NCBI GenBank assembly: GCA_963792575.1
Contig: CAWBWZ010000001.1
Span: forward strand, 125,555-189,554
From: an uncultured Acidobacteriota bacterium
GTDB lineage: Bacteria; Acidobacteriota; Thermoanaerobaculia; Multivoradales; UBA5704
Reading direction: 5' to 3'
DNA: 64,000 bases
Both the position numbers and the translations under genes were made by a program. The notes beneath the pieces were generated by a model, which was given only the letters and a program-made list of their open reading frames with translations, was not told the DNA's origin and ran no database searches. The first letter of the stretch is position 1, and every line of letters starts with the position of its first letter. Positions 28,116 to 54,161 of the stretch are shown here, one piece after another.

Positions 28116-28427
28116 ATGTCGAAAAAGTGTGTCTGGGCCGGACTTCTTCTGATCGCCGCGCTCTCCTTCGCCGGCCCCACCTGGGCGGTGGAGCCGCCGG
28201 CCGCTGATTGCCTGGCCGCCACCTCCACGCTCCCGGATCTCCCGGTCTGGATGCAGGCGGGTCCCATCCCCTGCGGCGCCGGCTGTCCGCTTTCCGGCCA
28301 GGGCACCTCTCCCAGTTGCACGGGCAAGATGACGGGCGACGCCTGTGGAGTCGGAGGGACCTGCTTTCTGGTCCTGACGCCTTCCTGCCCGCGCTCCGCG
28401 GCTCGTTGCTCCTGCATCACGCAGTGA
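28116..28427 (+). CDS. small secreted Cys-rich protein
   Basis: GGAGGA RBS. Sec signal MSKKCVWAGLLLIAALSFAGPTWA. The mature part has 9 Cys. Confidence 0.6.
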   Translation: MSKKCVWAGLLLIAALSFAGPTWAVEPPAADCLAATSTLPDLPVWMQAGPIPCGAGCPLSGQGTSPSCTGKMTGDACGVGGTCFLVLTPSCPRSAARCSCITQ

Positions 28428-28428
28428 G

Positions 28429-29127
28429 CTACTCGGCCGCTTCCAGCAGAGCGCGCATTTCAGGAGTCTTGGCCGCCTCCATCAGGGCGGCCTTGTGCTC
28501 GCCGAGCCTGGCTCCGGACGCGAGCAGGAGCCGGACGACGTCGAGGTGATTCTCGTTGACGGGTCCATACAGCAGGGGGAAGCCGCCGGGCGCGGCATTG
28601 GGATCGGCACCGGCCTTGAGCAGAATCGTGCACATCTCAAGGTTGCCCGTACGCGCCGCCTCCGCGAGCAACGGCACGCCGTACTCGTTGGCCATCCTGG
28701 CATCGGCCCCCGCCTCGACGAGAATGCGCACCAGCGCGGGATCTCCGGAATCGACCGCCTCAAAGACGATCGTCTTTCCGGACTCCATCGACGGCGCGTT
28801 CTTCTCGTTCGGCGCGACACCGCCGGCGAGCAGCGCCTTGAGAACCTCGGGCTGCTTCCGCTCGACCGCGATCCAGAGCGCCGTGCGTCTCGAGGAGTTG
28901 GCCGCCGAGGGATCGATACCGGCTTCGAGGAAGAGCGTCACGTGCGACGCGTCCCCCTCGGCGACTTTCTGCAGGAACGCCTCCGGGGTGAACGCGATGC
29001 CCTCCTTGGCAAGGGCTTCGCGGGCGCCGGCCTGATCGCAACGGGCGGGCGGAACGGCGAGGAACAGAGCGGCGAGCGCGAGCACGGCGAGCGGCGTCTT
29101 CATCGGGTTCTCCCGTCTTATGGGCAA
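28429..29127 (-). CDS. secreted ankyrin-repeat protein
   Basis: Signal peptide, then repeated ..TALWIAVERKQPEVLKALLAGGVAPN.. and ..LLAEAARTGNLEMCTILLKAGADPN.. units. Confidence 0.9.
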   Translation of the reverse strand: MPIRRENPMKTPLAVLALAALFLAVPPARCDQAGAREALAKEGIAFTPEAFLQKVAEGDASHVTLFLEAGIDPSAANSSRRTALWIAVERKQPEVLKALLAGGVAPNEKNAPSMESGKTIVFEAVDSGDPALVRILVEAGADARMANEYGVPLLAEAARTGNLEMCTILLKAGADPNAAPGGFPLLYGPVNENHLDVVRLLLASGARLGEHKAALMEAAKTPEMRALLEAAE

Positions 29128-29264: not shown

Positions 29265-30311
29265 TCAGCTTTTCCAGAACCGGGTCAGCCTCTCCAGAAT
29301 GGATCTCGAAGACTTTACCTTTTCGGGATCGAAAAAGGAGAGTCGATTCCCGATCCATCCCAGGACCTCCGGGGCACACCCGATCCAGGTCAGCACTTCC
29401 CGGAGTCGATCCTGGTACGGGACCTCCGCCAGATAATGATAATGAAGCAGAACGGGTTGGAAGCCCGGATACATGGGCCAGGACCGGCCGGGACCGATCA
29501 GATTATGGAGAGGGATGTTGTACCGCTCGTCATAGGTGTAAACGTCGGAGGTCCTGGACCAGATCGCGACGCTCAACGCGGCCTGGCTGGAACCCCACCA
29601 CTCGCTGGCCTCGAGCCCCACGGAACCCGTGGACGCCAGAACGTCAAATTCCTTGCCCTCCAGGGGGCGCAGGTTTTCCGCCAGGGACGCGAAGAAGATC
29701 TCCCGCGTTCTCTGGAGGATGCCGAGATCCCGCCGAACCACGGTGAAGCCGCCGTTGTACGACGCCCGGATCGGGAGGTTGTCGATCGTCGTGGAAATCA
29801 TCGGCAATTGTGACAGGCCGATGCCCCCGAACCCGCACATGCGGGCCCAATAGACGTCCTGTGGATCGCCGGCTCCGCTCGATGCCGAGCCTTTGACGTC
29901 CACCGGCCGAACCCCCGCATCCGCGCGCGCGAAACCGGGCTCGCCGACCAGGACGGTATCCGTGTCGAGCAGGACGAGGTAGGGCCGTGGGGAAAAGGTC
30001 TCCGCCCAGGCGCCGGCCACGATGCGGTTGATCGTGCCATAGGGACTGCCGGTATCGTTCAGGGGCTCGACGGCGTACGTCACTCCGAGCTTGGCGAGAT
30101 GTGCCCTGGCCTCGGAGCCCAGCGCGAGATGGGGCCGGGGCGAGACGGCGAGAATCGGAGCCTCCCGGTATCGTCCGCCGAAGGTTCGCAGGCTCTCGCA
30201 GAGGAGACGGGCCTGCGGCTCGAGCCGGTTCGCTTCGACGCAGATCAGGAAGGCGACCTCGCTCTCGTGGAGTGGGTCGTCGAGCTTGGATGCGTCCATG
30301 CCCTGGAGCAT
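29265..30311 (-). CDS. GT8-like nucleotide-diphospho-sugar glycosyltransferase
   Basis: Only the last 348 aa of track ORF 29265..31814 look real. It has LVLLDTDTVLV (DxD) and YNGGF. Start at ATG 30311 or 30299. Confidence 0.65.
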   Translation of the reverse strand: MLQGMDASKLDDPLHESEVAFLICVEANRLEPQARLLCESLRTFGGRYREAPILAVSPRPHLALGSEARAHLAKLGVTYAVEPLNDTGSPYGTINRIVAGAWAETFSPRPYLVLLDTDTVLVGEPGFARADAGVRPVDVKGSASSGAGDPQDVYWARMCGFGGIGLSQLPMISTTIDNLPIRASYNGGFTVVRRDLGILQRTREIFFASLAENLRPLEGKEFDVLASTGSVGLEASEWWGSSQAALSVAIWSRTSDVYTYDERYNIPLHNLIGPGRSWPMYPGFQPVLLHYHYLAEVPYQDRLREVLTWIGCAPEVLGWIGNRLSFFDPEKVKSSRSILERLTRFWKS

Positions 30312-30326
30312 AATCGAGCCGCCGAC

Positions 30327-31928
30327 ATGCACGCACGAGTCGATCGCCGGGCTGATCCCCGAAAACGAGCCTGGACGAGCCAGGAATCGGACGCCGGGCG
30401 TCCGCTCTTCGCAGGGCTCGTTGCCGCGGCCTTTGTGCTTCTGACCGTGCCGCGCCTTCTCCTGCACGAGCTCTGGCGGGACGAGTCCTGGCTCTGGCTG
30501 GTGGTTCAGGAGAGCCGCTCCGTCCACGATCTGTTCCAGCCGCTGGCCCGGAGCGGTCAGGGGTATCTCTTCCCCCTGCTCTGCTTCCTGGCCGGGCAGG
30601 TGTCGACGTCGCCGCGGGCGATGCAACTCATGCACCTTGTGCTGGCGGGTGGCGCGGCCTTCGCTTTCGCCCGCTGGGCGCCGCTCGGCCGCCGTGAGCG
30701 CGCGCTCTTCGTGCTCGGCTACTTCCCGTTCTACGAATACGCGGTGATCAGCCGCCACTATGCCGCCGGAGCCCTTCTCGCCTGGCTGGCCTGCGCCGCG
30801 GCGCTCAGCCGCCGGCCGGCGCTGGCCCTCGGGGCGGCGCTCGCGCTGCTCTGCCAGACCACCGTCTACGGCTACATCCTGGCCCTCGCGATCGCCTGCG
30901 GATGGCTGCTCGACCGCTGGTTTCGCCGTGGAGAGCTCGCACCATTGCCACGGGGCGAGGCCGCGGCCGGCCTTGCCCTGGCGCTGGCCGGCGCTGTCGC
31001 GGGGCTCATCCAGCTCATCCCGCTGCCCGGCACCAGCTTCGCGCCGGGGTGGCGCTTCGGTTGGGATGCGGCACAGGCTGGCCAGACGCTGAGGATGCCC
31101 TGGCGCACCTTCGTGCCCCTGCCACGGCTCGATCTCCATTTCTGGAACACCAATCTGCTCGACGCCTGGCCCGGTCTGCAAACGCTGGCGGGACTGCTGA
31201 CGCTGGCGCTGGCCATTGCCCTTCTCTGGCCCCGGAAGGCGGCCCTGGCGACCTTCTGCCTCGGCGCCGCCGGCATTCTCGCCTTCGGCTACGTCAAATA
31301 CGCCGGCGTTCTGCGCCACCAGGGGCATTTGTGGCTCCTCTTCGCGGCGGCTCTCTGGCTGGGCGGCGGTTTCCGGGAGGAAGACCGCCGGTCCTGGCGC
31401 GCCCGGACTCTCCTGGTCCTGTTGATCGTCCACTGCGGCGCGGCGGCCTTCGCCAGCTGGATGGATCTCCGCCACCCCTTCTCGAATGGCGCCGCGACCG
31501 CGGAGCTGATCCGCGGCGAGGGGTTGGACCGGCTCCCGTTGTTCGGGTCGCGCGAGCCGCCGGCGGCAACCGTCGCGCTCGCCCTCGGCCGGCCGCTCTA
31601 CTCGCCGTCGCGGGGCGTCTTCGTCACCCATCCGGATTGGGGCCCTGAGCAGCGGGAGCTCAGCGCGCGGGAGGTGCGTTGCGCCGCCCGCGAGCTGGCC
31701 CGGCGAGAGGCCGGGGACATCGTTCTCGTCATGAGCTCGGAGCTCCCACCCTGGGAAGAGCTGACCGCGGCCGGCTCCAGGGTCGGAGCGATCGTGTCCA
31801 CGGAGGACTATCACCTCTACCGGCTGCTTTACAGCCGCCTCGGCTCAACGGCTCAGGCGGCAGGATGCGAGGCCTCCGCGATCACTCCCTCCGCCTCGCC
31901 CGCCGCCAGTTCCGGACCTCCGCCATAA
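30327..31928 (+). CDS. polytopic membrane protein, GT-C (ArnT/PMT-like) glycosyltransferase candidate
   Basis: About 10 hydrophobic segments followed by a soluble C-terminal domain. Divergent from the GT8-like gene. The start is uncertain (ATG 30327). Confidence 0.55.
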   Translation: MHARVDRRADPRKRAWTSQESDAGRPLFAGLVAAAFVLLTVPRLLLHELWRDESWLWLVVQESRSVHDLFQPLARSGQGYLFPLLCFLAGQVSTSPRAMQLMHLVLAGGAAFAFARWAPLGRRERALFVLGYFPFYEYAVISRHYAAGALLAWLACAAALSRRPALALGAALALLCQTTVYGYILALAIACGWLLDRWFRRGELAPLPRGEAAAGLALALAGAVAGLIQLIPLPGTSFAPGWRFGWDAAQAGQTLRMPWRTFVPLPRLDLHFWNTNLLDAWPGLQTLAGLLTLALAIALLWPRKAALATFCLGAAGILAFGYVKYAGVLRHQGHLWLLFAAALWLGGGFREEDRRSWRARTLLVLLIVHCGAAAFASWMDLRHPFSNGAATAELIRGEGLDRLPLFGSREPPAATVALALGRPLYSPSRGVFVTHPDWGPEQRELSAREVRCAARELARREAGDIVLVMSSELPPWEELTAAGSRVGAIVSTEDYHLYRLLYSRLGSTAQAAGCEASAITPSASPAASSGPPP

Positions 31929-33942
31929 GCCGGTCGCGGCGCTCGGCGGCGGTGATCCGCGAGCGTCCGAGGAGACGCCCCATCACGGTGGTGATGGCGC
32001 GGCCGGTCTTCCAGCTTCGCGAATCCAGCGTGGCGGAGAAAATGGCGTCGAGCTCGTCGAGCCACGAGAAGGCGCGGTGGAGGTCCGCCGCGCTTTCCGC
32101 AACCGAGACCGCTGGCGCGCTCAGGCTCGCCGCCGCATGGGTGTGCGCGGAGATCTGATGGCGCAGGCCGCGTGTCGTGGCCTGCGTGCTCTGGTAGGTG
32201 GCGAGCAGGTCCCGCGCTCCGGCGGAGAGGGGTGGGATCGGGTCGAGGTCGAACGCGGTGCCGTTGGCCAGCGCGTCCAGCAGCTCGAGCTGTGGAAAGG
32301 TGAGATAAGGGCGCTCGATCTCGGGCTCGTGCGCATGATGCACGAGCGCGGGGTCCAGGACGGCGCGGATCTCTTTCTCGGTGGGAATCTGAAAGCGCGC
32401 GAGCTCCGGCCTGTGCCGCGCCATCTGGTCATACAGCCGCTGGAGGGTGGCCACGGGATCCGCCATCAGCTCCCGGTGGGAGACGAGGACTCGCGGCAGG
32501 CCCCGGGTGGACGCCAGCGCCTCCAGGGTGTACCGCTCCCAGAGGGCGATGCCGTAGGGGATCGGAATTCCGTCGCGAGCGGCCAGCGAGCGGGCGACCG
32601 GCAGCGGCTCGCGATAGATCAGAACACAGAGCGGGCGTTCGAGGATCTCCCGCCAGAACGGGAAGAGCAGGCAGAGCCGTGGATCTTTGACCACCCAGGA
32701 GCCATGCCGGTCGAGATCCCGGACGATCGCCCGGGCGCGCTCCTTGAAGCGGGCGCGCACCCCTTCTCCCAGGCGGGAGAGATCGAGATCGGCGATCTCG
32801 GACCAGCTCGCGCCGAGCGTCTGGAGAATCGCCTCGTCGACAGACCAGAGGCCCCGATGCTCCCAATAACCTTTCTGATTGTGGTCGTCCCCGGGCGGAA
32901 AGTCCTCTTCCTCTCCGGCCCAGAGTCCCAGCAGCCAGAGGAGATGGGTGATCGCGGAGGTCCCGGAACGGTGCATGCCGAGGACGACCACCTGTGTGGC
33001 CGGAGCGGCCGGCGGGGCGGGGCCCTCCCGGGGCGGCCGCGCGCGTCCGGACCGTGCCTCTCTTTCCTGGCGCAACCGCCGGTTGAAAGCTTCGATCCGT
33101 ACCTGGGCGAACGGATAGGGGGTATGCAGGAGATAGCCTTCGGGGTCGGCGCGGTCGTAGTAGTGCAAGATGGCGGGGTCGACGGCGAGGAATCCCTCCG
33201 GAGGCGGAAATTGGGAGAGGTTAAGCTGGAAATTGAGCTCGACCGGCGCCTCCGCGAACGGGACGGGACAGGCGGCCAGGGCCAGGCTCAGGCTCGCCTG
33301 CTGGCACTGGCGCTCACAAGGGCGGAGGATCTCGAGCTCCTCGGCGAGCCGCTGGTTGTAGTCGCTCCAGACGGGGAGGATCTGGCGCGCCAGGTGGGAC
33401 GGCAGCAGGATCATTCCCGAGTTGAAATAGGGGATCGTCGGCGTCCCGGCGAAGCTGTTGACGTGCTCGCGCGCGGGCAGCGGCAGGCCGTAATGAAGGA
33501 AGGCCCGCTCGAAGACCTCGGGCGTCACGGTCGGCAGCGGAGCGATCCTGGCCTGGAACAGGCCGCGGCGCATCCAGGGGAGCGGATCCTGAATGACCAC
33601 CGTGTCGCAGGCGAGCAGCAGGAGCATCTCGCGGTCTGTCTCCCAGACCTCCTGGAAGAGCTGCGGCTGGTTGGCAAGGCGGTTGTGCGGCTGGAGGGGA
33701 GGAGGGACGATCCGCACCTCGGCCCGGTAGCGCTCGAACTCCTGCCGGAGGCTCCGGTCGAGCCCTCTCACCACACAGATCCGCACCCGCGCGTCCGCCA
33801 TCTCGCCGCCGAACCAGCGGATCGACTGCACGAGCCGCAGCGCCTGGCCGAGGAGCCGGGGATCGTTCTCGGCGACGCAGCCGACGAGAAAATCCTGGGC
33901 GGCGAGCCCGGTCTGCGCGCGAGGGGGGGAGGGCGCCGGCAT
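31882..33942 (-). CDS. fusion protein: GT8-like glycosyltransferase domain + sulfotransferase domain
   Basis: The N-terminal half has LLLLACDTVV and YFNSGMILL (GT8-like). The C-terminal half has VVVLGMHRSGTSAITHLL (PAPS 5-prime-phosphosulfate loop) and SWVVKDPR (3-prime-phosphate motif). Confidence 0.65.
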   Translation of the reverse strand: MPAPSPPRAQTGLAAQDFLVGCVAENDPRLLGQALRLVQSIRWFGGEMADARVRICVVRGLDRSLRQEFERYRAEVRIVPPPLQPHNRLANQPQLFQEVWETDREMLLLLACDTVVIQDPLPWMRRGLFQARIAPLPTVTPEVFERAFLHYGLPLPAREHVNSFAGTPTIPYFNSGMILLPSHLARQILPVWSDYNQRLAEELEILRPCERQCQQASLSLALAACPVPFAEAPVELNFQLNLSQFPPPEGFLAVDPAILHYYDRADPEGYLLHTPYPFAQVRIEAFNRRLRQEREARSGRARPPREGPAPPAAPATQVVVLGMHRSGTSAITHLLWLLGLWAGEEEDFPPGDDHNQKGYWEHRGLWSVDEAILQTLGASWSEIADLDLSRLGEGVRARFKERARAIVRDLDRHGSWVVKDPRLCLLFPFWREILERPLCVLIYREPLPVARSLAARDGIPIPYGIALWERYTLEALASTRGLPRVLVSHRELMADPVATLQRLYDQMARHRPELARFQIPTEKEIRAVLDPALVHHAHEPEIERPYLTFPQLELLDALANGTAFDLDPIPPLSAGARDLLATYQSTQATTRGLRHQISAHTHAAASLSAPAVSVAESAADLHRAFSWLDELDAIFSATLDSRSWKTGRAITTVMGRLLGRSRITAAERRDRLMAEVRNWRRARRRE

Positions 33943-33979
33943 GGTCCGAGCTTCTTACCAGAAGAGGGAAGGGGCGTCT

Positions 33980-36244
33980 ATGGAGGCTGGTGTACACTTC
34001 AGCATCCCGATGCCGCAGTTCCCGCTTCATTCGCTCGTGATCGTCGCCGACGTCGGTGCCGAGCCGTTCCATGTCGGCGACGAGGCGATGCTCGAGGCGA
34101 ATCTCGAGGCGCTGCGCCGGCATGACCCCACCGTCCGCATCACCGTGATCGGCCGCGATGCGGCCCAAACGCCCGCCGAGGCCCTGGCCCGAGCCGGCGG
34201 GCTGTTCGTCTCCGGCGGCGGCAACCTCAGCTCGTCCTGGCCCGGATTGCTCCACCAGCGGATCCGGTGGATGCGCGAGGCGCGGCGGCGGGGGCTTCCG
34301 GTCGTCACCGGCGGCCAGACGATCGGCCCCGAGCTCGTCACGGCGGAACGGTCCAGGCTGGCGAAGGCCCTGGCCGGCGTCGAGCACCTGGGAGTCCGCG
34401 AGCTCCCCTCGGTGGCGCTGGCGCTGCAGATGGGAGTGCCGCTCGACAAGCTCAGCTACCAGCTCGACGACGCGTTCTTCCTCGCCGGTCGTCCGTTTGC
34501 CCCGGAGAAGGGGCCGAGCTGCCCGGACGAGCCGTTCCTGCTCGTCACCCTGGATCCCAGCTTCGCCGCGGCGGAATCCCGCCCAGGCCTCAGCAGCCTC
34601 GCCCTTCAGCTCGCCAGGATCGCGGCCGAGAGCGGACTGCGCCTCGCGTTCCTGCCTCACGTCGGGCCGCCTGGAAGCCTCGGCGACGAGGATGGCCGGG
34701 CGGGGACCGCGCTTGCTCAGCTCTTGCGGGCCGAAGGGGTAGGGTGCGCGCTGCTCCCGGTGATGCCACCCGCGGAAACCGTCTGGATGACGCAGCGGGC
34801 GGCCGCCGTCGTGTCGTCCCGCTACCATCCCCTGGTGTTCGCAACGGCCGCCGCCGTCCCTTGCCTGGGGCTCTATCGCGACGACTACACCCGGATCAAG
34901 CTCCAGGGGGCCCTCGCCCATCTCGGGATGGAGGCCTGGTGCCAGTCGGCCGCGGACGCCGAGAGGTTCGGCCTGATCAAGGCCTTCCGCCGTCTCTGGA
35001 GCCAGCGGGAGGAGATCGCCGCGGCGATGACCCGGGCGCGGCAACCGCTCGCCGCTCAGGAGGAGCGGCGATGGCAACAGCTGTTCGCGCGGCTGGGCTG
35101 GCCGCGGGAATCTGTCGGGCAGCCCGTCGAGCAGCCCGCCGCGGTGCTCCTCGGCTGGCCGGCCGACCAGAGCGGCCGGCTGGCGGCGGCGGCTCTCTCC
35201 GCGCTCGTCCTGCAACGCCAGGCCAGCGAAGCGGAGTCCTGGCACTGGCGGGGTGTCGTCAACCAACTGGAGAGATCGGCCGGCCTCGCCGTCCAGGCCG
35301 TCCGGGGAAGACCGCGAGGGGCTATGGAGGAAACCAAAGTGTTGACAGAGCAGCAATGGAACGACTACTCGCGTGACGGCTTCCTGCATCTCGGAAAGGT
35401 GCTGGAGCCGGAAGAGCTGGAGGCTCTGCGGCACCGGGCCGACGACCTCGCGCTGGGCAACGTCAAGAACCCGGATGTGCAGATGCAGCTCGATACCGGC
35501 GGCGTCTACGAGGACCTGCCGGCGGCAGTCCGCGCTTTCGACCGCGGCACGATGCTCTACCGCAAGATCCAGGGCCTTGAGACCGACGAGCTTTTCGTGC
35601 GGCTCGTGAAGCACCCCCTCTTTCTGGAGATCTGCGCGCGCCAGTACGGCTCGCATGCCCCGGTCTCGATCTTCCGCGCCATGGTGATGAACAAGCCGGC
35701 GGGGCAGGGCACGGTCCTGCCCTGGCACCAGGACGGCGGCGACGTCTGGCGCCTCGACCGCGACCCCCTGGTCACTGTCTGGGTCGCCCTCGACCCGGCG
35801 ACGCGGGCGAATGGCTGTATGGAAGTAGTTCCCGGGACCCACCGTCTGGGGCTGCTGAGCCTGTATGGCAGCACGGTTGAAGAGGAGCACGTGAAAGTCC
35901 ACTGCCCCGCGGAGCGCGTCCAGCCGCTCGAGGTCGAGGCGGGGCACGCCGTCCTGCTCCACAACTGGTTGATCCATCGCTCCGGAGTCAATCCGACGTC
36001 CGTGCCGCGGCGCGCCCTGACGGTCTGTTACATGGACGGCCGCACGCTGAGCACTCTGACCGGCAACCCTTTTCCTCTCGTAGCCGGCTCCTTGCCCGCG
36101 GAGTACCCGTTCGTCCACCAGCTGCGCCAGGACTGCGCGACATTGCGCGAGCTCGCGACCCGGCGGATGTGGAAAGTGGGGCTTCAGCAGCTCCGGGGCG
36201 GGCTCTCCCGCTTGCGCTCCCGCCTGACGGCGGCCACGCGCTAA
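33980..36244 (+). CDS. polysaccharide pyruvyl transferase domain fused in frame to a PhyH-type Fe(II)/2-oxoglutarate dioxygenase domain
   Basis: The N-terminal ~360 aa have GGGNL..., VVSSRYHPLVFA (CsaB/WcaK-like). From 35324 comes MEETKVLTEQQWNDYSRDGFLHLG ... LPWHQDG ... HNWLIHRSGVN (PhyH). There is no stop codon between the two domains in the given sequence. Confidence 0.65.
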   Translation: MEAGVHFSIPMPQFPLHSLVIVADVGAEPFHVGDEAMLEANLEALRRHDPTVRITVIGRDAAQTPAEALARAGGLFVSGGGNLSSSWPGLLHQRIRWMREARRRGLPVVTGGQTIGPELVTAERSRLAKALAGVEHLGVRELPSVALALQMGVPLDKLSYQLDDAFFLAGRPFAPEKGPSCPDEPFLLVTLDPSFAAAESRPGLSSLALQLARIAAESGLRLAFLPHVGPPGSLGDEDGRAGTALAQLLRAEGVGCALLPVMPPAETVWMTQRAAAVVSSRYHPLVFATAAAVPCLGLYRDDYTRIKLQGALAHLGMEAWCQSAADAERFGLIKAFRRLWSQREEIAAAMTRARQPLAAQEERRWQQLFARLGWPRESVGQPVEQPAAVLLGWPADQSGRLAAAALSALVLQRQASEAESWHWRGVVNQLERSAGLAVQAVRGRPRGAMEETKVLTEQQWNDYSRDGFLHLGKVLEPEELEALRHRADDLALGNVKNPDVQMQLDTGGVYEDLPAAVRAFDRGTMLYRKIQGLETDELFVRLVKHPLFLEICARQYGSHAPVSIFRAMVMNKPAGQGTVLPWHQDGGDVWRLDRDPLVTVWVALDPATRANGCMEVVPGTHRLGLLSLYGSTVEEEHVKVHCPAERVQPLEVEAGHAVLLHNWLIHRSGVNPTSVPRRALTVCYMDGRTLSTLTGNPFPLVAGSLPAEYPFVHQLRQDCATLRELATRRMWKVGLQQLRGGLSRLRSRLTAATR

Positions 36245-47751: not shown

Positions 47752-48718
47752 CTACTTCTGATCCGCGGGCACGACTCCGGTGAGCTTCACCGGCTTTTTG
47801 GCGCGGGCGTCGAAGTCGGAGAGGACCTGTTCCTGGGTGCGGCCGCCCTTGGCCACGATGAGGTCGATCAGGGGCGGCTGGATGTCGGCGTTCTCGCGGC
47901 CGCCGCCGAAGCGGTCCTGCCAGCGGCCCGGGGAGACGGGGAGGATCATCAGACTCTTGTCGGCCGGATCGCGGCCCAGCTTGCGGGCGAGGTCGAAGGA
48001 CTGCAGCAGGTCGGCGCCGGTGGTGGCCACGGTGTAGGCCCAGGTGGATTTGGCCGGGCCGCCGAGGACGATGCCGGGCACGAAGAAGCTGATCTTCTGG
48101 CCGCGCACGTGGATCTGGGTGGGGAAGAAGATGCGCTCCTCGACGTCGACCGGGATCTGCTTCTTGAGCGAGTCGATCTCCGCGTCGGTGAGGCTGCTGC
48201 TCTTCTTGGCGTCCTCGTTGAGGGTCTTCAGGAGCAGCCGCTTGAGCTCGGCCTTGGCCTCGTTGGGCCGGGGCGTCAGGATGACCGCCTTCTCCCAGGC
48301 GGTCGACGGATCGACCTCGGCGTGGCGGCCGGGGAGCATGGTGAGGCCGCCGGAGCCCGCGACCCGGTCGGTGTCGATGTAGAGGTCGAGGTTCAGGTTG
48401 TAGAAGCCGAAGCGGGCGATCTTGTCGAGCTGGGTGCCGAGCTCGTCGATGGCCTCCCGGGCCGGGCGTCCGCACGGGGCGCGCGAAGGTGACCTCGAAC
48501 ATCGTGCCGTCGCCGTCCTCCCGGGCGGTCAGGGAGAGGATGTCGAGATCGCCGGGCTTCAGATCGTCGTTGTTGGGGTAGACGATCTTGCCGTCGCCAT
48601 GGTCGTCGCCCCGCGGGTCGGTGAGGGTGAAGATCTCCTTGCCGGCGCCGAAGGCGGGCGGAGCGATCAGGGAGGCGAGGAGGGTGGCGGTGAGCAGATG
48701 GGAACGGCTGAATCGCAT
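47752..48718 (-). pseudogene. secreted glucodextranase-C-terminal-like (DPxGDDxG...YP family) protein, one frameshift
   Basis: The N-terminus with signal peptide and TDPRGDDHGDGKIVYP is in track ORF 47735..48718. The rest (AIDELGTQL... to ...VVPADQK) is in the frame of ORF 47752..48339. The switch is near 48457. It is a paralog of 51069..51890. Confidence 0.7.
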
Positions 48719-51068: not shown

Positions 51069-51890
51069 TTACTTCTTGGCGGAAACCATCTTGAGGGCGG
51101 CGCCCGACTTGCGCGTGCCGTCCGGGTTGCACTCGTACTTCAGCATGTCGTGCTGCATCTGGACCTCGTCGGCCGCGCCGGTGCCGTTGCCGGCCAGGAT
51201 GTCGATCACGTGCGGATCGCAATCGCTGTCGGTGCCGCCGCCGAAGCGGTGCTGGCCCTCATACTCGTTGACCTTGCGGGTGAGCAGGTCCTTGCCGTCG
51301 GGGAACCCCTCGTTGGACTGCACGAGGACCTGGTAGCCCCACTGCGAGGGGTCGCCGCCGCCGAGCTGGTCGAGGTCCACCGAGCCGGTGATCGTCCGGC
51401 CGGCGCCCTTGACGCGGGTCGGGATGACCACCGCTCCGCCCTGCGCCGCGGCCATCTTGGCGTCCACCTCGGACTTCACCTTGCCGGGCCCCTGCGGCGA
51501 AAGGATCACCATCTTGTTCCACTCATTGCCGTCGGCGAAGGTGACGTTGGTGCCCGGAGGGCCGTCCTTGAAGCCCCCCTCGGCGCCGGTGCGGATGGCG
51601 ATGAACACCATCTGCACCGAGAAGCCGCCGCCCATCCGCCAGGGGTCCTCGAGGGCGGTGTTGAAGGTGACGGCGAAGTCCACCTTCTTGCCGCTGACCT
51701 TGACGTCGAAGGCGGTCATGTCGAACGAGCCGCGCTTGTAGACGCCGTCGGTCGGGTAGGTGTAGCTGCCCGGACCGTTGTCGTCGTTGGCGGGATCCTT
51801 GAACGAAACGCCGCTCTGGGCGAGCGCGGAGCCGGCGATCAGCAGGCCGGCCGCGGCCGCGGCACCCATTTTCCAGAAATTCTTGGACAT
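51069..51890 (-). CDS. secreted glucodextranase-C-terminal-like carbohydrate-binding protein
   Basis: 273 aa at the end of the artefactual 1030-aa track ORF. AAGGAGG RBS. Signal MSKNFWKMGAAAAAGLLIAGSALA. Motif KDPANDDNGPGSYTYP. Confidence 0.75.
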   Translation of the reverse strand: MSKNFWKMGAAAAAGLLIAGSALAQSGVSFKDPANDDNGPGSYTYPTDGVYKRGSFDMTAFDVKVSGKKVDFAVTFNTALEDPWRMGGGFSVQMVFIAIRTGAEGGFKDGPPGTNVTFADGNEWNKMVILSPQGPGKVKSEVDAKMAAAQGGAVVIPTRVKGAGRTITGSVDLDQLGGGDPSQWGYQVLVQSNEGFPDGKDLLTRKVNEYEGQHRFGGGTDSDCDPHVIDILAGNGTGAADEVQMQHDMLKYECNPDGTRKSGAALKMVSAKK

Positions 51891-51916
51891 ACGTAGACCT
51901 CCTTGTTGGTGGGCCT

Positions 51917-52799
51917 TCAGCCCTTGACTGCGCCGGCCGTAAGACCGGAAACCAGATATTTTTGCAGGAACAGGAAGAGCGCCATCACCGGGATGGCGGC
52001 GATGATCGAGCCGGCCGCGAAGTACCCCCACTGCTGGGAGAAGCCGCCGACGAAGAAGCGCAGCCCCACCGGGGCCGTGTACATGTCCTCGCTGGTTCAT
52101 GAAGGTGGCGGCCTGGATGAACTCGTTCCAGCCGGTCATGAACGAGAACAGCGCGGTCACCGCCACGGCGGGCTTGGCCAGCGGCAGGATGATGCGGAAG
52201 AAGATCGTCGCCTGCGAGGCGCCGTCGATCAGCGCCGACTCCTCGAGCTCCTTGGGGATGGTGTCGAAATAACCTTTCATCATCCAGACGCAGAAGGGGA
52301 TCGCGGTCACCGTATAGATCAGCACCAGGCCGGTGAAAGTCGAGCCCAGCCCCAGCCACTGGACGATGATGATGTAGAGCGGGATCAGCATCAGGGTGCC
52401 GGGGAACATCTGCGACACCAGGAAGGCCATCAGCCCCGCCCGCCGGCCGGGGAAGCGGAAGCGCGAGAAGGCGTAGGCCGCGGTGCAGGCGAGGAAGACG
52501 CCGAGGACCGTCGTCAGCCCCGCCACCAGGACGCTGTTGAGCAGCCAGCGCCCGAACGGCTGGTCGGCGAACAGCGAGCGGAAGTTGTCGATCGACAGGT
52601 GCGAGGGCCAGGGGATGACGGCGCGCAGCCGGTCGATGGCGCCGGCGTTCGACGGCACGTCGGCGATCGCCAGGCTCTGTCCGCCGGAGAAGGCGATGGT
52701 CAGCACCCACAGAATCGGGTAGACGGTGATCAGCACCATGATCAGCACGAAGATGTGGAGCGGCCAGTGGGCCGGCTCGTCGCTGCGTCTCGATCTCAT
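51917..52799 (-). pseudogene. sugar ABC transporter permease (MalG-like), one frameshift
   Basis: EAA-loop region ELEESALIDGASQATIFFRIILPLAKPA. The frame breaks after ...ATFMNQ (about 52090) and resumes as DMYTAPVGLRFF...LTAGAVKG. The start overlaps the stop of the upstream permease gene (ATGA). Confidence 0.85.
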
Positions 52800-54161
52800 C
52801 CGATCGCCTCCGTCGCGCCGGTCACCCGGTTCTGCCAGGTGCCGTAGGCGAACAGGATCAGGAAAATGATGGCCGAGTAAGCGGCCGCGTAGCCGTAGCG
52901 GTACTGCTCGAACGCCAGCTTGTACGACTGCGTGATCAGGATCTCGGTCGAGTGCCCGGCGGTCGCCGGCGGAGACCAGATAGATCACGTTGAACTGATT
53001 GAAGGTCCAGATCACCGACAGGATGATCGCCGGCACCAGCGCGGGCTTGAGCGACGGCAGGGTGATCGAGCGGAACTGCTGCCAGCGCGTGGCGCCGTCC
53101 ACCCGCGCCGCCTCGTAGAGATCGGCCGGGATCGACTGCAGGGCGCCCAGCGAGATCACCATCATGAACGGGAAGGAGAGCCAGCCGTTGGTGGTCAGCA
53201 CCGCCAGGAACGAGGTGAACGGGTGATCGAACCAGGCGACCTCGGGGATTCCGGCGATCTGGAGGATCTGGTTGATCACGCCGAACTGCCGGTGGAACAT
53301 GCCCTTGAAGATCAGCGCCGTGATGTAGTTGGGCATCGCCCAGGGGAGGATCAGCAGCACCCGGTAGAGCGGCCGCAGGGCGAAACCCTTGAGATTCAGG
53401 GTCAGCGCCAGGGCGAGCCCGAGCGTGACGCCGATCGCCACGTTGGCCACCGTCCAGACGATGGTGAACAGCAGCGTGTAATAGAAATTCTGATAGTCCC
53501 AGGCGACCCCCGCCGCCGTGCGGTGCACGATGTGGAAGTCGCTGATGATGTCGAGGTAGTTCTGGAGCCCGACCCAGGTCTCGAAGATCGTCTTGTCGGT
53601 GTTGTAGATGTTGGCGTTGGTGAACGACAGGGCGATGCCGTAGAAGAACGGGAAGAAGACCAGGATCAGCATGCCGATCATCGCCGGCAGGACATAGGCG
53701 TAGGCTGTGCGGTACTCGACGAGGGCGGCGCCGGTGCGCGCCGCCCAGCCCAGCCCGACGAAGGCGAGCAGGACGAGCGAGAGCAGGGCGAGCAGGACCA
53801 CCGAGCGGGTCATCCGCCCGGCGTCGACCTGGACGAGCTCGCCGAGCTTCCCCTCGTCGAGAGCGCCGGAGGCGCCGATCAGCCCGCGCGACTGGCGGTA
53901 GAGGTCGACGTCCCAGAGCGTCGGCGCCAGCGGCTGGCCGGCGGGGATCGACTGCCGCGCCAGGAGCGCCTCCGCCTTCTTCGACTCCTCGCCGATCTGG
54001 GCGGCCACCGCCTGGGCCGAGACCCGGCGCTCGGCTTTCAGCACACTGACGGCGAAGCGTCCGTAGAAGAAGAGGGAGAGGATCAGCAGGAGGGCCGCGG
54101 CCGCCGCCAGCAGCCACCGCCGTTCACCGAGGACGAACGAGAGCAGGACCAGGGCGATCAC
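52796..54161 (-). pseudogene. sugar ABC transporter permease (MalF-like), frameshifted near its 3-prime end
   Basis: LYEAARVDGATRWQQFRSITLPSLKPA EAA loop. The frame breaks after ...FNVIYLVS (about 52960) and resumes as HSTEILITQSYKLAFEQYRYGYAAA... Confidence 0.85.

Follow-up and report, generated by a model that had tools for sequence, protein, structure and literature searches.

The 64,000 nucleotides analysed here, referred to as the window, stem from an uncultured Acidobacteriota bacterium (Thermoanaerobaculia; Multivoradales; UBA5704; contig CAWBWZ010000001.1 of assembly GCA_963792575.1, positions 125,555 to 189,554) and contain, between window positions 29265 and 36244, a compact cluster of four genes with predicted roles in glycan modification (Table 1). 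These are g1, encoding a retaining-type GT-A glycosyltransferase (GT), g2, encoding a polytopic GT-C membrane protein, g3, in which a GT8-like domain is fused to a sulfotransferase, and g4, a fusion of a pyruvyl transferase (PvT) with a PhyH-type Fe(II)/2-oxoglutarate (2OG) dioxygenase. With a probability of roughly 0.55, the cluster represents two separable glycan-decoration units that adjoin in this genome, i.e. unit A (g3-g2-g1) and unit B (g4). A first-pass annotation, prepared from the sequence without database searches, had instead envisaged one dedicated pathway whose four genes are inherited together. This proposal is not supported in that form by their co-occurrence in related genomes, where g3-g2-g1 is a conserved, Thermoanaerobaculia-specific three-gene block, whereas g4 is found beside it only in a subset.

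Co-occurrence was assessed by searching 60 related genomes with each protein, followed by retrieval of the flanking regions and their scanning with custom-built family hidden Markov models (HMMs); those for the sulfotransferase, g1 and g3 are narrow and distant homologues may escape them. In the following, G-numbers denote genomes and L-numbers denote loci or contigs. The complete block, with all orientations as in the window, is present in G001 (L072), L023, L156 and L157. Reduced versions comprise g1, g2 and a g3 that consists of the sulfotransferase only (G026, L070), g3 and g2 only (G016, G036), or g1 and the sulfotransferase only (G003, G015/L024, G018), while g2 is located beside a second, 34-35% identical sulfotransferase lineage in G004, G028, G031 and G010. 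G054, a member of a different family, encodes a 703-aa protein that joins a g1-type domain to the sulfotransferase, with g2 following. Among the 11 further genomes that contain g2, a sulfotransferase lies within ~2.5 kb of it in 10, G019 being the exception, which together with the listed arrangements shows that the pairings of a GT-C enzyme with a sulfotransferase and of a GT8-like enzyme with a sulfotransferase are robust within this clade. A literature search retrieved no paper on GT-C enzymes paired with sulfotransferases. The idea that a separate g1 is maintained only where the GT8-like domain of g3 is absent or degenerate had to be abandoned, as L156 and L157 carry g1 in addition to a g3 with an intact DCD motif.

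Directly adjoining g4 and g3 genes are found in the window, in G011 (L092) and in L158, and the divergent g3/g4 junction recurs in the latter two at 66-72% identity. All four genes occur in the same order in the window and in G011, while L158 combines g4-g3-g2 with a GT2/GT4 protein in place of g1. L081 features a gene for the N-terminal domain of g3 immediately upstream of g4, plus fragments of g1 and g2 in a rearranged context, and g2 is 5-15 kb away from g4 in L091 and G019. Two decayed PvT fragments are located beside g1 and the sulfotransferase in G018, and G054 encodes PhyH and PvT as separate divergent genes 5 kb from unit A, so that all five domains fall within 11 kb in another family. 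In those sampled genomes that contain both units (G000, G011, G019, G054), these are always at most 15 kb apart. The shared four-gene order, the related arrangement in L158, the situation in G054 and the decayed g4 of G018, which implies an ancestral four-gene state, would all fit a single dedicated pathway in which the four proteins act in an obligate sequence on one sulfated, pyruvylated and hydroxylated glycoconjugate. Such a pathway is nevertheless unlikely. The genes g1-g2-g3 are kept without g4 in at least G001, L023, L156, L157, G026 and G016, and g4 is kept where g1-g3 are missing, both in at least nine genomes of the genus and across other phyla, there with a GT4 partner; no unit A gene was detected within 10 kb of g4 in nine genomes (G033, G020, G007, G024, G013, G025, G002, G050, G022). 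Most simply, the four genes would have been together in an ancestor of the genus, and either part was then lost frequently and independently. In the two-unit reading, g4 would have stood beside g3 ancestrally in this genus and often have been lost since, and it probably decorates the same polymer as unit A without being required by unit A.

The assignment of g1 relies on structure, as neither Pfam nor NCBIfam provides a match and no Pfam family, including Glyco_transf_8, is hit even at E <= 10. According to its AlphaFold2 (AF2) model (predicted local distance difference test, pLDDT, 87), g1 folds as a retaining GT-A enzyme whose nearest solved folds are those of GT6 and GT8: the best Foldseek matches are the GT6 ABO transferases (GTA/GTB) and the GT8 glycogenin, with E-values of 4e-8 to 2e-7 and template modelling (TM) scores of 0.45-0.58. 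D116-x-D118, N186-G188 and H290/H292 are invariant in an alignment of 37 sequences. The invariant DxD and these folds bear out the GT8-like character that g1 had been given initially, despite the missing Pfam match. Sequence-profile searches of the PDB with the g1, g2 and g3 profiles returned nothing useful.

The protein g2 likewise lacks any Pfam match. For its AF2 model (pLDDT 92.8), the top 13 Foldseek matches in the PDB are all GT-C enzymes (ArnT, STT3, ALG12/9/3, AftA/B/D, PglB; probability 0.90-1.0, TM score ~0.32-0.45), with ArnT as the best structural match, and the earlier suggestion of a GT-C-like protein is thus well founded. Across 98 diverse sequences, H47, D52, E53, Y132 and E137 are invariant, and E48, W50 and R51 are invariant or nearly so. 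Helix and charge analysis suggests a topology of 11 helices with the N-terminus inside, and with the DE loop after the first transmembrane helix and the C-terminal domain outside; the latter is probably periplasmic. The wider g2 family comprises 3533 clusters at 50% identity and is represented in 16 of 301 Acidobacteriota genomes. Distant members from this phylum adjoin epimerases, methyltransferases and GT2 proteins of 313-318 aa. As ~315 aa is the size of polyprenyl-phosphate sugar synthases, this context fits a GT-C enzyme that is fed by such a synthase. A sulfotransferase linkage across the entire g2 family was considered and rejected, since none was detected near the distant Acidobacteriota members with the narrow sulfotransferase HMM.

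For residues 1-300 of g3, no Pfam family, including Glyco_transf_8, is found at E <= 10, and the alignment with g1 is weak (E 0.008) and spans the DxD region. The family of this N-terminal domain displays a GT8-type motif series composed of DCD, followed by YFN(A/S)G and LHY(H). Position 111 is an Asp in 90 of 102 family members, giving the DCD motif; the copy in the window reads ACD and has therefore lost the first Asp. The combination of ACD and HYY is common to this copy and seven close relatives (>= 86% identity). An Ala at position 111 is also found in 2 more distant family members with further motif changes, which points to independent degeneration in other lineages, and G016 and G035 exhibit an internal deletion within the GT8-like domain. 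The central domain scores 22.7-23.9 bits against Sulfotransfer_3 (PF13469), below the Pfam cut-off of 27. Most full-length g3 homologues, down to 42% identity, carry PF13469, and the orthologue from G054 reaches 39 bits. In an alignment of 40 sequences, M323, G327, S329, R444, V449 and S452 of the sulfotransferase domain are invariant, while G322, H324, R325 and T328 are nearly so. An HMM of the C-terminal region (g3C) matches all g3 proteins and their sulfotransferase-only relatives. The sulfate donor 3'-phosphoadenosine 5'-phosphosulfate (PAPS) should be available, as adenosine 5'-phosphosulfate (APS) kinase is encoded in this genome, as in 56 of the 61 sampled genomes when this one is counted. 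The first-pass annotation had interpreted g3 as a GT8-like/sulfotransferase fusion. This stands with respect to the motif series of the family, the invariant PAPS motifs and the PF13469 matches of the homologues, but the DxD expected of its GT8-like half is AxD here.

In g4, both halves match Pfam profiles. PS_pyruv_trans (PF04230) covers residues 45-314 with 98 bits (cut-off 25.3; profile positions 2-279 of 280) and PhyH (PF05721) residues 476-692 with 110 bits (cut-off 22), in full agreement with the pyruvyl-transferase/PhyH fusion that had been recognized before. In the PhyH half, the HxD motif (H596, D598) as well as H669, H674 and H679 are invariant among 11 sequences. With 54.6 bits against TIGR03609, far under the cut-off of 213.1, g4 is not a CsaB equivalog, and the nearest NCBIfam models for the PhyH half, i.e. 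phosphonate and ectoine hydroxylases, also remain far under their cut-offs. As a single open reading frame (ORF), g4 is found in 12 other sampled genomes at 63-88% identity. Beyond the class, one genome per prokaryote species was scanned, followed by an HMM scan of the returned loci. Here, PvT and PhyH are fused in either order or encoded by adjacent genes in Acidobacteriota, Betaproteobacteria, Pseudomonas, Verrucomicrobiota, Actinomycetota and Myxococcota. Fusions with PvT first are present in Bryobacterales, Paludibaculum, Vicinamibacterales, Variovorax (including V. paradoxus NBRC 15149), Comamonas sp. B-9, Diaphorobacter caeni, Gaiellales and Polyangiaceae, the order PhyH-PvT in Verrucomicrobiota, Pseudomonas fluvialis and Acetobacteraceae, and adjacent genes on opposite strands in several other lineages. 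The occurrence of fusions in both orders and the conserved adjacency are strong evidence that PvT and PhyH act in consecutive steps.

The recurrent neighbour of PvT/PhyH outside the Thermoanaerobaculia is an orthologous protein of 800-1100 aa with a C-terminal GT4 domain. Its family is 33-57% identical across phyla, and the N-terminal 400-700 aa are uncharacterised. As a partner of g4 in the genus studied here, this large GT4 protein was rejected, because a homologue is encoded in most genus genomes regardless of g4 and never adjoins it. An actinomycete metagenome-assembled genome harbors a PvT/PhyH fusion with an additional N-terminal extension of ~560 aa that has no Pfam match (L089, 8321-12130; 1269-aa ORF).

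From the folds, motifs, gene order and co-occurrence described above, we infer substrates, step order and acceptor as follows. The co-substrates of four of the five catalytic domains are cytoplasmic (nucleotide sugar, PAPS, phosphoenolpyruvate (PEP), 2OG and Fe(II)), while the active site of the GT-C enzyme faces the periplasm, which implies that a shared substrate is membrane-anchored and flipped. At the cytoplasmic face of the inner membrane, g1 would transfer a hexose from a nucleotide sugar onto a membrane-anchored glycan, and the N-terminal domain of g3 may catalyze the same addition in relatives with an intact DxD. Then, the sulfotransferase domain of g3 could sulfate this glycan with PAPS. 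Following translocation of the carrier by the housekeeping flipping machinery, g2 would add a further sugar from a polyprenyl-phosphate donor at the periplasmic face. In the case of g4, the PvT half is expected to use PEP, and the Fe(II)/2OG half may target the same residue or substituent, the two reactions being consecutive. The favoured acceptor, by analogy, is an inner-membrane-anchored envelope glycan, for example the core or lipid A of lipopolysaccharide (LPS), for which flipping by MsbA is the simplest case, or another lipid-linked glycan. Precedents for LPS as acceptor are the GT8 transferases of the LPS core, ArnT, KdoO and the sulfation of rhizobial LPS. Conceivably, such an acceptor is built by housekeeping machinery, which would explain why assembly, export and priming genes are missing from the locus. 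Indeed, no Wzx/Wzy, Wza/Wzc, priming transferase or nucleotide-sugar genes are encoded within ~10 kb of the cluster, in line with the first-pass annotation, according to which this is not a standard exopolysaccharide (EPS) or O-antigen assembly locus.

Several points weigh against the interpretation as two units that decorate one envelope glycan. The frequency of g4 is ~20-25% in genomes with and without unit A alike, i.e. there is no enrichment, and elsewhere in the genus it is surrounded by unrelated housekeeping genes without a recurring glycan theme. The slot between the flavin adenine dinucleotide (FAD)-oxidoreductase and hydrolase genes varies among relatives, and some of the adjacency may thus reflect a shared insertion hot spot. 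Given the AxD motif of g3, the GT8-like activity of this protein, one of two in the locus, may be impaired in this genome. Neither a GT2 polyprenyl-phosphate sugar synthase nor a GtrA-type flippase is encoded in or beside the cluster, and the case for LPS is one of analogy with GT8 enzymes, ArnT, KdoO and LpsS.

Two of these points, the lack of enrichment and the variable slot, bear on the possibility that the adjacency of g4 and g1-g3 is purely historical, with both having landed or been retained in a variable chromosomal slot while their target molecules differ. The slot contents do differ, including a 4-kb insert with a duplicated gene end in G033, restriction-modification genes in L023 and a polycystic kidney disease (PKD) domain protein in L024, and the missing enrichment of g4 among unit A carriers at the genome level is as expected for unrelated units. 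This explanation is doubtful all the same, as it does not account for the recurrence of the divergent g3/g4 junction in G011 and L158, and as proximity of the two units also in G054 from a different family, in L081 and in L091 would be surprising for genes without a relationship. In G033, the closest complete relative, the last 66 codons of the FAD-oxidoreductase gene are duplicated directly upstream of g4 (89% identical at the protein level; L011, 4182-5774 and 9744-9941), and this copy of the gene end is separated from the intact gene by the 4-kb insert, which includes an M48 peptidase gene. A corresponding copy as a trace of cassette insertion was looked for in the window and was not found.

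For unit A, an Arn-like pathway was weighed as well, in which the GT8-like enzyme and the sulfotransferase would make a sulfated polyprenyl-phosphate sugar on the cytoplasmic face, and, on the periplasmic side, g2 would pass this sulfo-sugar on to an envelope acceptor such as lipid A or the LPS core. We regard this route as improbable; if true, it would make g2 the first known GT-C enzyme with a sulfated donor and would reveal a new bacterial route to surface sulfate. Targets other than envelope glycans, i.e. a secreted or cytoplasmic protein or a glycosylated and sulfated small-molecule natural product, are highly improbable: although the retaining GT-A relatives of GT6/GT8 include protein modifiers such as glycogenin, polysaccharide assembly genes are missing close by, and the block is preceded here and in L023 by a short ORF for a Cys-rich secreted protein and an ankyrin gene, the latter two are missing from most other copies of the block, natural-product core genes are absent, and the presence of a GT-C enzyme, one of whose domains is probably periplasmic, suggests that the donor is lipid-linked and the acceptor extracytoplasmic.

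The two-unit organization can be compared with several known systems. In multi-component transmembrane glycosylation, a polyprenyl-phosphate sugar synthase of the GT-A type acts together with a GtrA-type flippase and a GT-C enzyme, as in Gtr O-antigen glucosylation and ArnC/ArnEF/ArnT (PMC13390465). Unit A resembles these systems in combining a GT-A enzyme of the cytoplasm with a polytopic GT-C protein, closest to ArnT, and in lacking Wzx/Wzy and export genes. In contrast, the GT-A partner is GT6/GT8-like and retaining rather than a GT2 enzyme, a GtrA-like flippase gene is missing, and a PAPS-dependent sulfotransferase is the constant partner, which we did not find described for Gtr/Arn systems. 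With CAZy GT8 enzymes (LgtC, glycogenin, WaaI/WaaJ-type), g1 and the g3 family share the GT-A fold and the motif series DxD...(Y)FN(A/S)G...H-x-H; unlike these, they do not match Glyco_transf_8 at E <= 10, GT6 structures score slightly higher, and the g3 studied here has AxD. The PF13469 sulfotransferases, to which NodH belongs (PMC11625862), have in common with g3 a 5'-phosphosulfate-binding (5'-PSB) loop with R-x-G signature and a 3'-phosphate-binding (3'-PB) motif, whereas the PF13469 match, seen in most g3 homologues, is below the Pfam cut-off in this copy; g3 also differs in being fused both to a GT8-like domain and to a helical region conserved at its C-terminus. The N-terminal half of g4 matches the PF04230 profile over its full length, like CsaB and WcaK, yet it is covalently joined to PhyH and usually stands alone or with a large GT4 protein and not in an EPS or secondary cell-wall polymer locus. 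KdoO is an Fe(II)/2OG oxygenase that acts on the 3-deoxy-D-manno-oct-2-ulosonic acid (Kdo) of LPS. Like such glycan-tailoring oxygenases, g4 has a PhyH fold with HxD...H and lies beside glycan-modifying enzymes, although its PhyH half and KdoO are members of different families.

Taken together, the locus follows a known logic of glycan decoration in a lineage-specific variant, and the families involved are uncharacterised but not rare. The initial impression that both fusions are unusual could not be upheld, since the GT8-like/sulfotransferase fusion has hundreds of full-length relatives and the PvT/PhyH pair or fusion occurs in several phyla. Searches of the literature provided no characterisation of either fusion, and specifically no paper on the pyruvyl-transferase/PhyH fusion. 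To our knowledge, very few enzymes of glycan sulfation in bacteria have been characterised, and the process is poorly understood. In unit A, a sulfotransferase is firmly linked with a GT-C membrane glycosyltransferase and with enzymes of the GT8-like type; the soil lineage concerned is large and has no cultured model, and this compact three-gene set is open to expression and assay. Moreover, g1, g2 and the GT8-like domain of g3 represent families without any Pfam model, of which the g2 family alone amounts to ~3500 clusters at 50% identity. The PvT/PhyH pair is a widespread, uncharacterised two-step unit that could be tested in cultured Variovorax, Comamonas and Pseudomonas strains.

Within positions 29265-36244, third-position GC identifies exactly four coding frames, g1, g2, g3 and g4. 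The G+C content of the window is ~68%, which accounts for spurious long ORFs on both strands; all four genes are real. The two head-to-head pairs that had been noted at first are indeed present. The start codons of the divergent g1 and g2 are only ~15 nt apart (30299-30327), and the promoter of each gene must therefore be located inside the other one. The 3' ends of the convergent g2 and g3 share 47 nt (31882-31928); this overlap and the close divergent starts are both kept in L023 and G001. The ORF of g4 is open from 33941, but alignment with ten relatives supports a conserved start, MPQ, at ATG 34010, which leaves a gap of ~67 nt to the divergent g3. No gap between neighbouring genes of the cluster exceeds 137 nt.

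Table 1. Features of the g1-g4 region in window coordinates, and loci of the GT4-protein family in coordinates of the respective locus.
Feature	Position	Strand	Length	Assignment	Basis
g1	29265-30311	-	348 aa	soluble retaining-type GT-A glycosyltransferase, GT6/GT8-like	third-position GC frame
g2	30327-31928	+	533 aa	polytopic GT-C fold, ~11 transmembrane helices, C-terminal alpha/beta domain ~aa 385-510	third-position GC frame
g3	31882-33942	-	686 aa	GT8-like/sulfotransferase fusion	third-position GC frame
g3, N-terminal domain	33058-33942	-		GT8-like GT-A domain, distant g1 paralogue	motifs YFNSG, LHY
g3, central domain	32263-33030	-		PAPS-type sulfotransferase, PF13469, NodH-type	5'-PSB loop GMHRSGTS, 3'-PB R444...S452
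g3, C-terminal region	31885-32262	-	~125 aa	conserved, predicted helical, invariant SRSW	family HMM g3C
g4	33941-36244 (conserved start 34010)	+	767 aa (full ORF)	pyruvyl-transferase/PhyH fusion	third-position GC frame
g4, N-terminal domain	34028-34975	+		PS_pyruv_trans	Pfam
g4, linker	34976-35335	+		conserved linker	
g4, C-terminal domain	35336-36040	+		PhyH Fe(II)/2OG dioxygenase	Pfam
GT4 protein, L096	7515-9956				
GT4 protein, L101	7491-9941				
GT4 protein, L131	1416-3809				
GT4 protein, L117	6544-9039				
GT4 protein, L093	11758-15087				
GT4 protein, L095	11977-15153				

The flanking genes are functionally unrelated and encode, among others, an FAD oxidoreductase, a small Cys-rich secreted ORF, an ankyrin protein, a dienelactone hydrolase and a beta-propeller protein. 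The Cys-rich ORF (28116-28427, 103 aa, with a signal-peptide-like start) and the gene for the ankyrin-repeat protein (28429-29127, 232 aa) are located between the FAD oxidoreductase gene and g1; they occupy the same position in L023 and are absent from other copies of the g1-g3 block. Further downstream, the window features two genes (47752-48339 and 51069-54161) with the surface-layer-homology (SLH)-like domain Glucodextran_C (PF09985), one of which is fused to an ATP-binding cassette (ABC) transporter permease. This pair, with roughly 3 kb between its members, is present in about half of the related genomes and is close to g4 only in the nearest relatives. Such SLH-like proteins were considered as readers of a pyruvate mark set by g4 and rejected, as no significant genome-level association with g4 was found.

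The names that homologues carry agree with a placement of the organism in the Thermoanaerobaculia, Acidobacteriota. The assembly consists of 26 contigs with an estimated completeness of 76%. The homologue of the GT4 partner (contig C2, 888113-890841) and the APS-kinase gene (contig C21, 27712-28171) are each split over several frames, and the APS kinase of G014, an assembly that likewise combines few contigs with low estimated completeness, is also frame-split. This suggests indel errors of long-read sequencing and not true pseudogenes. The genes g1-g4 are intact and match their relatives end to end.

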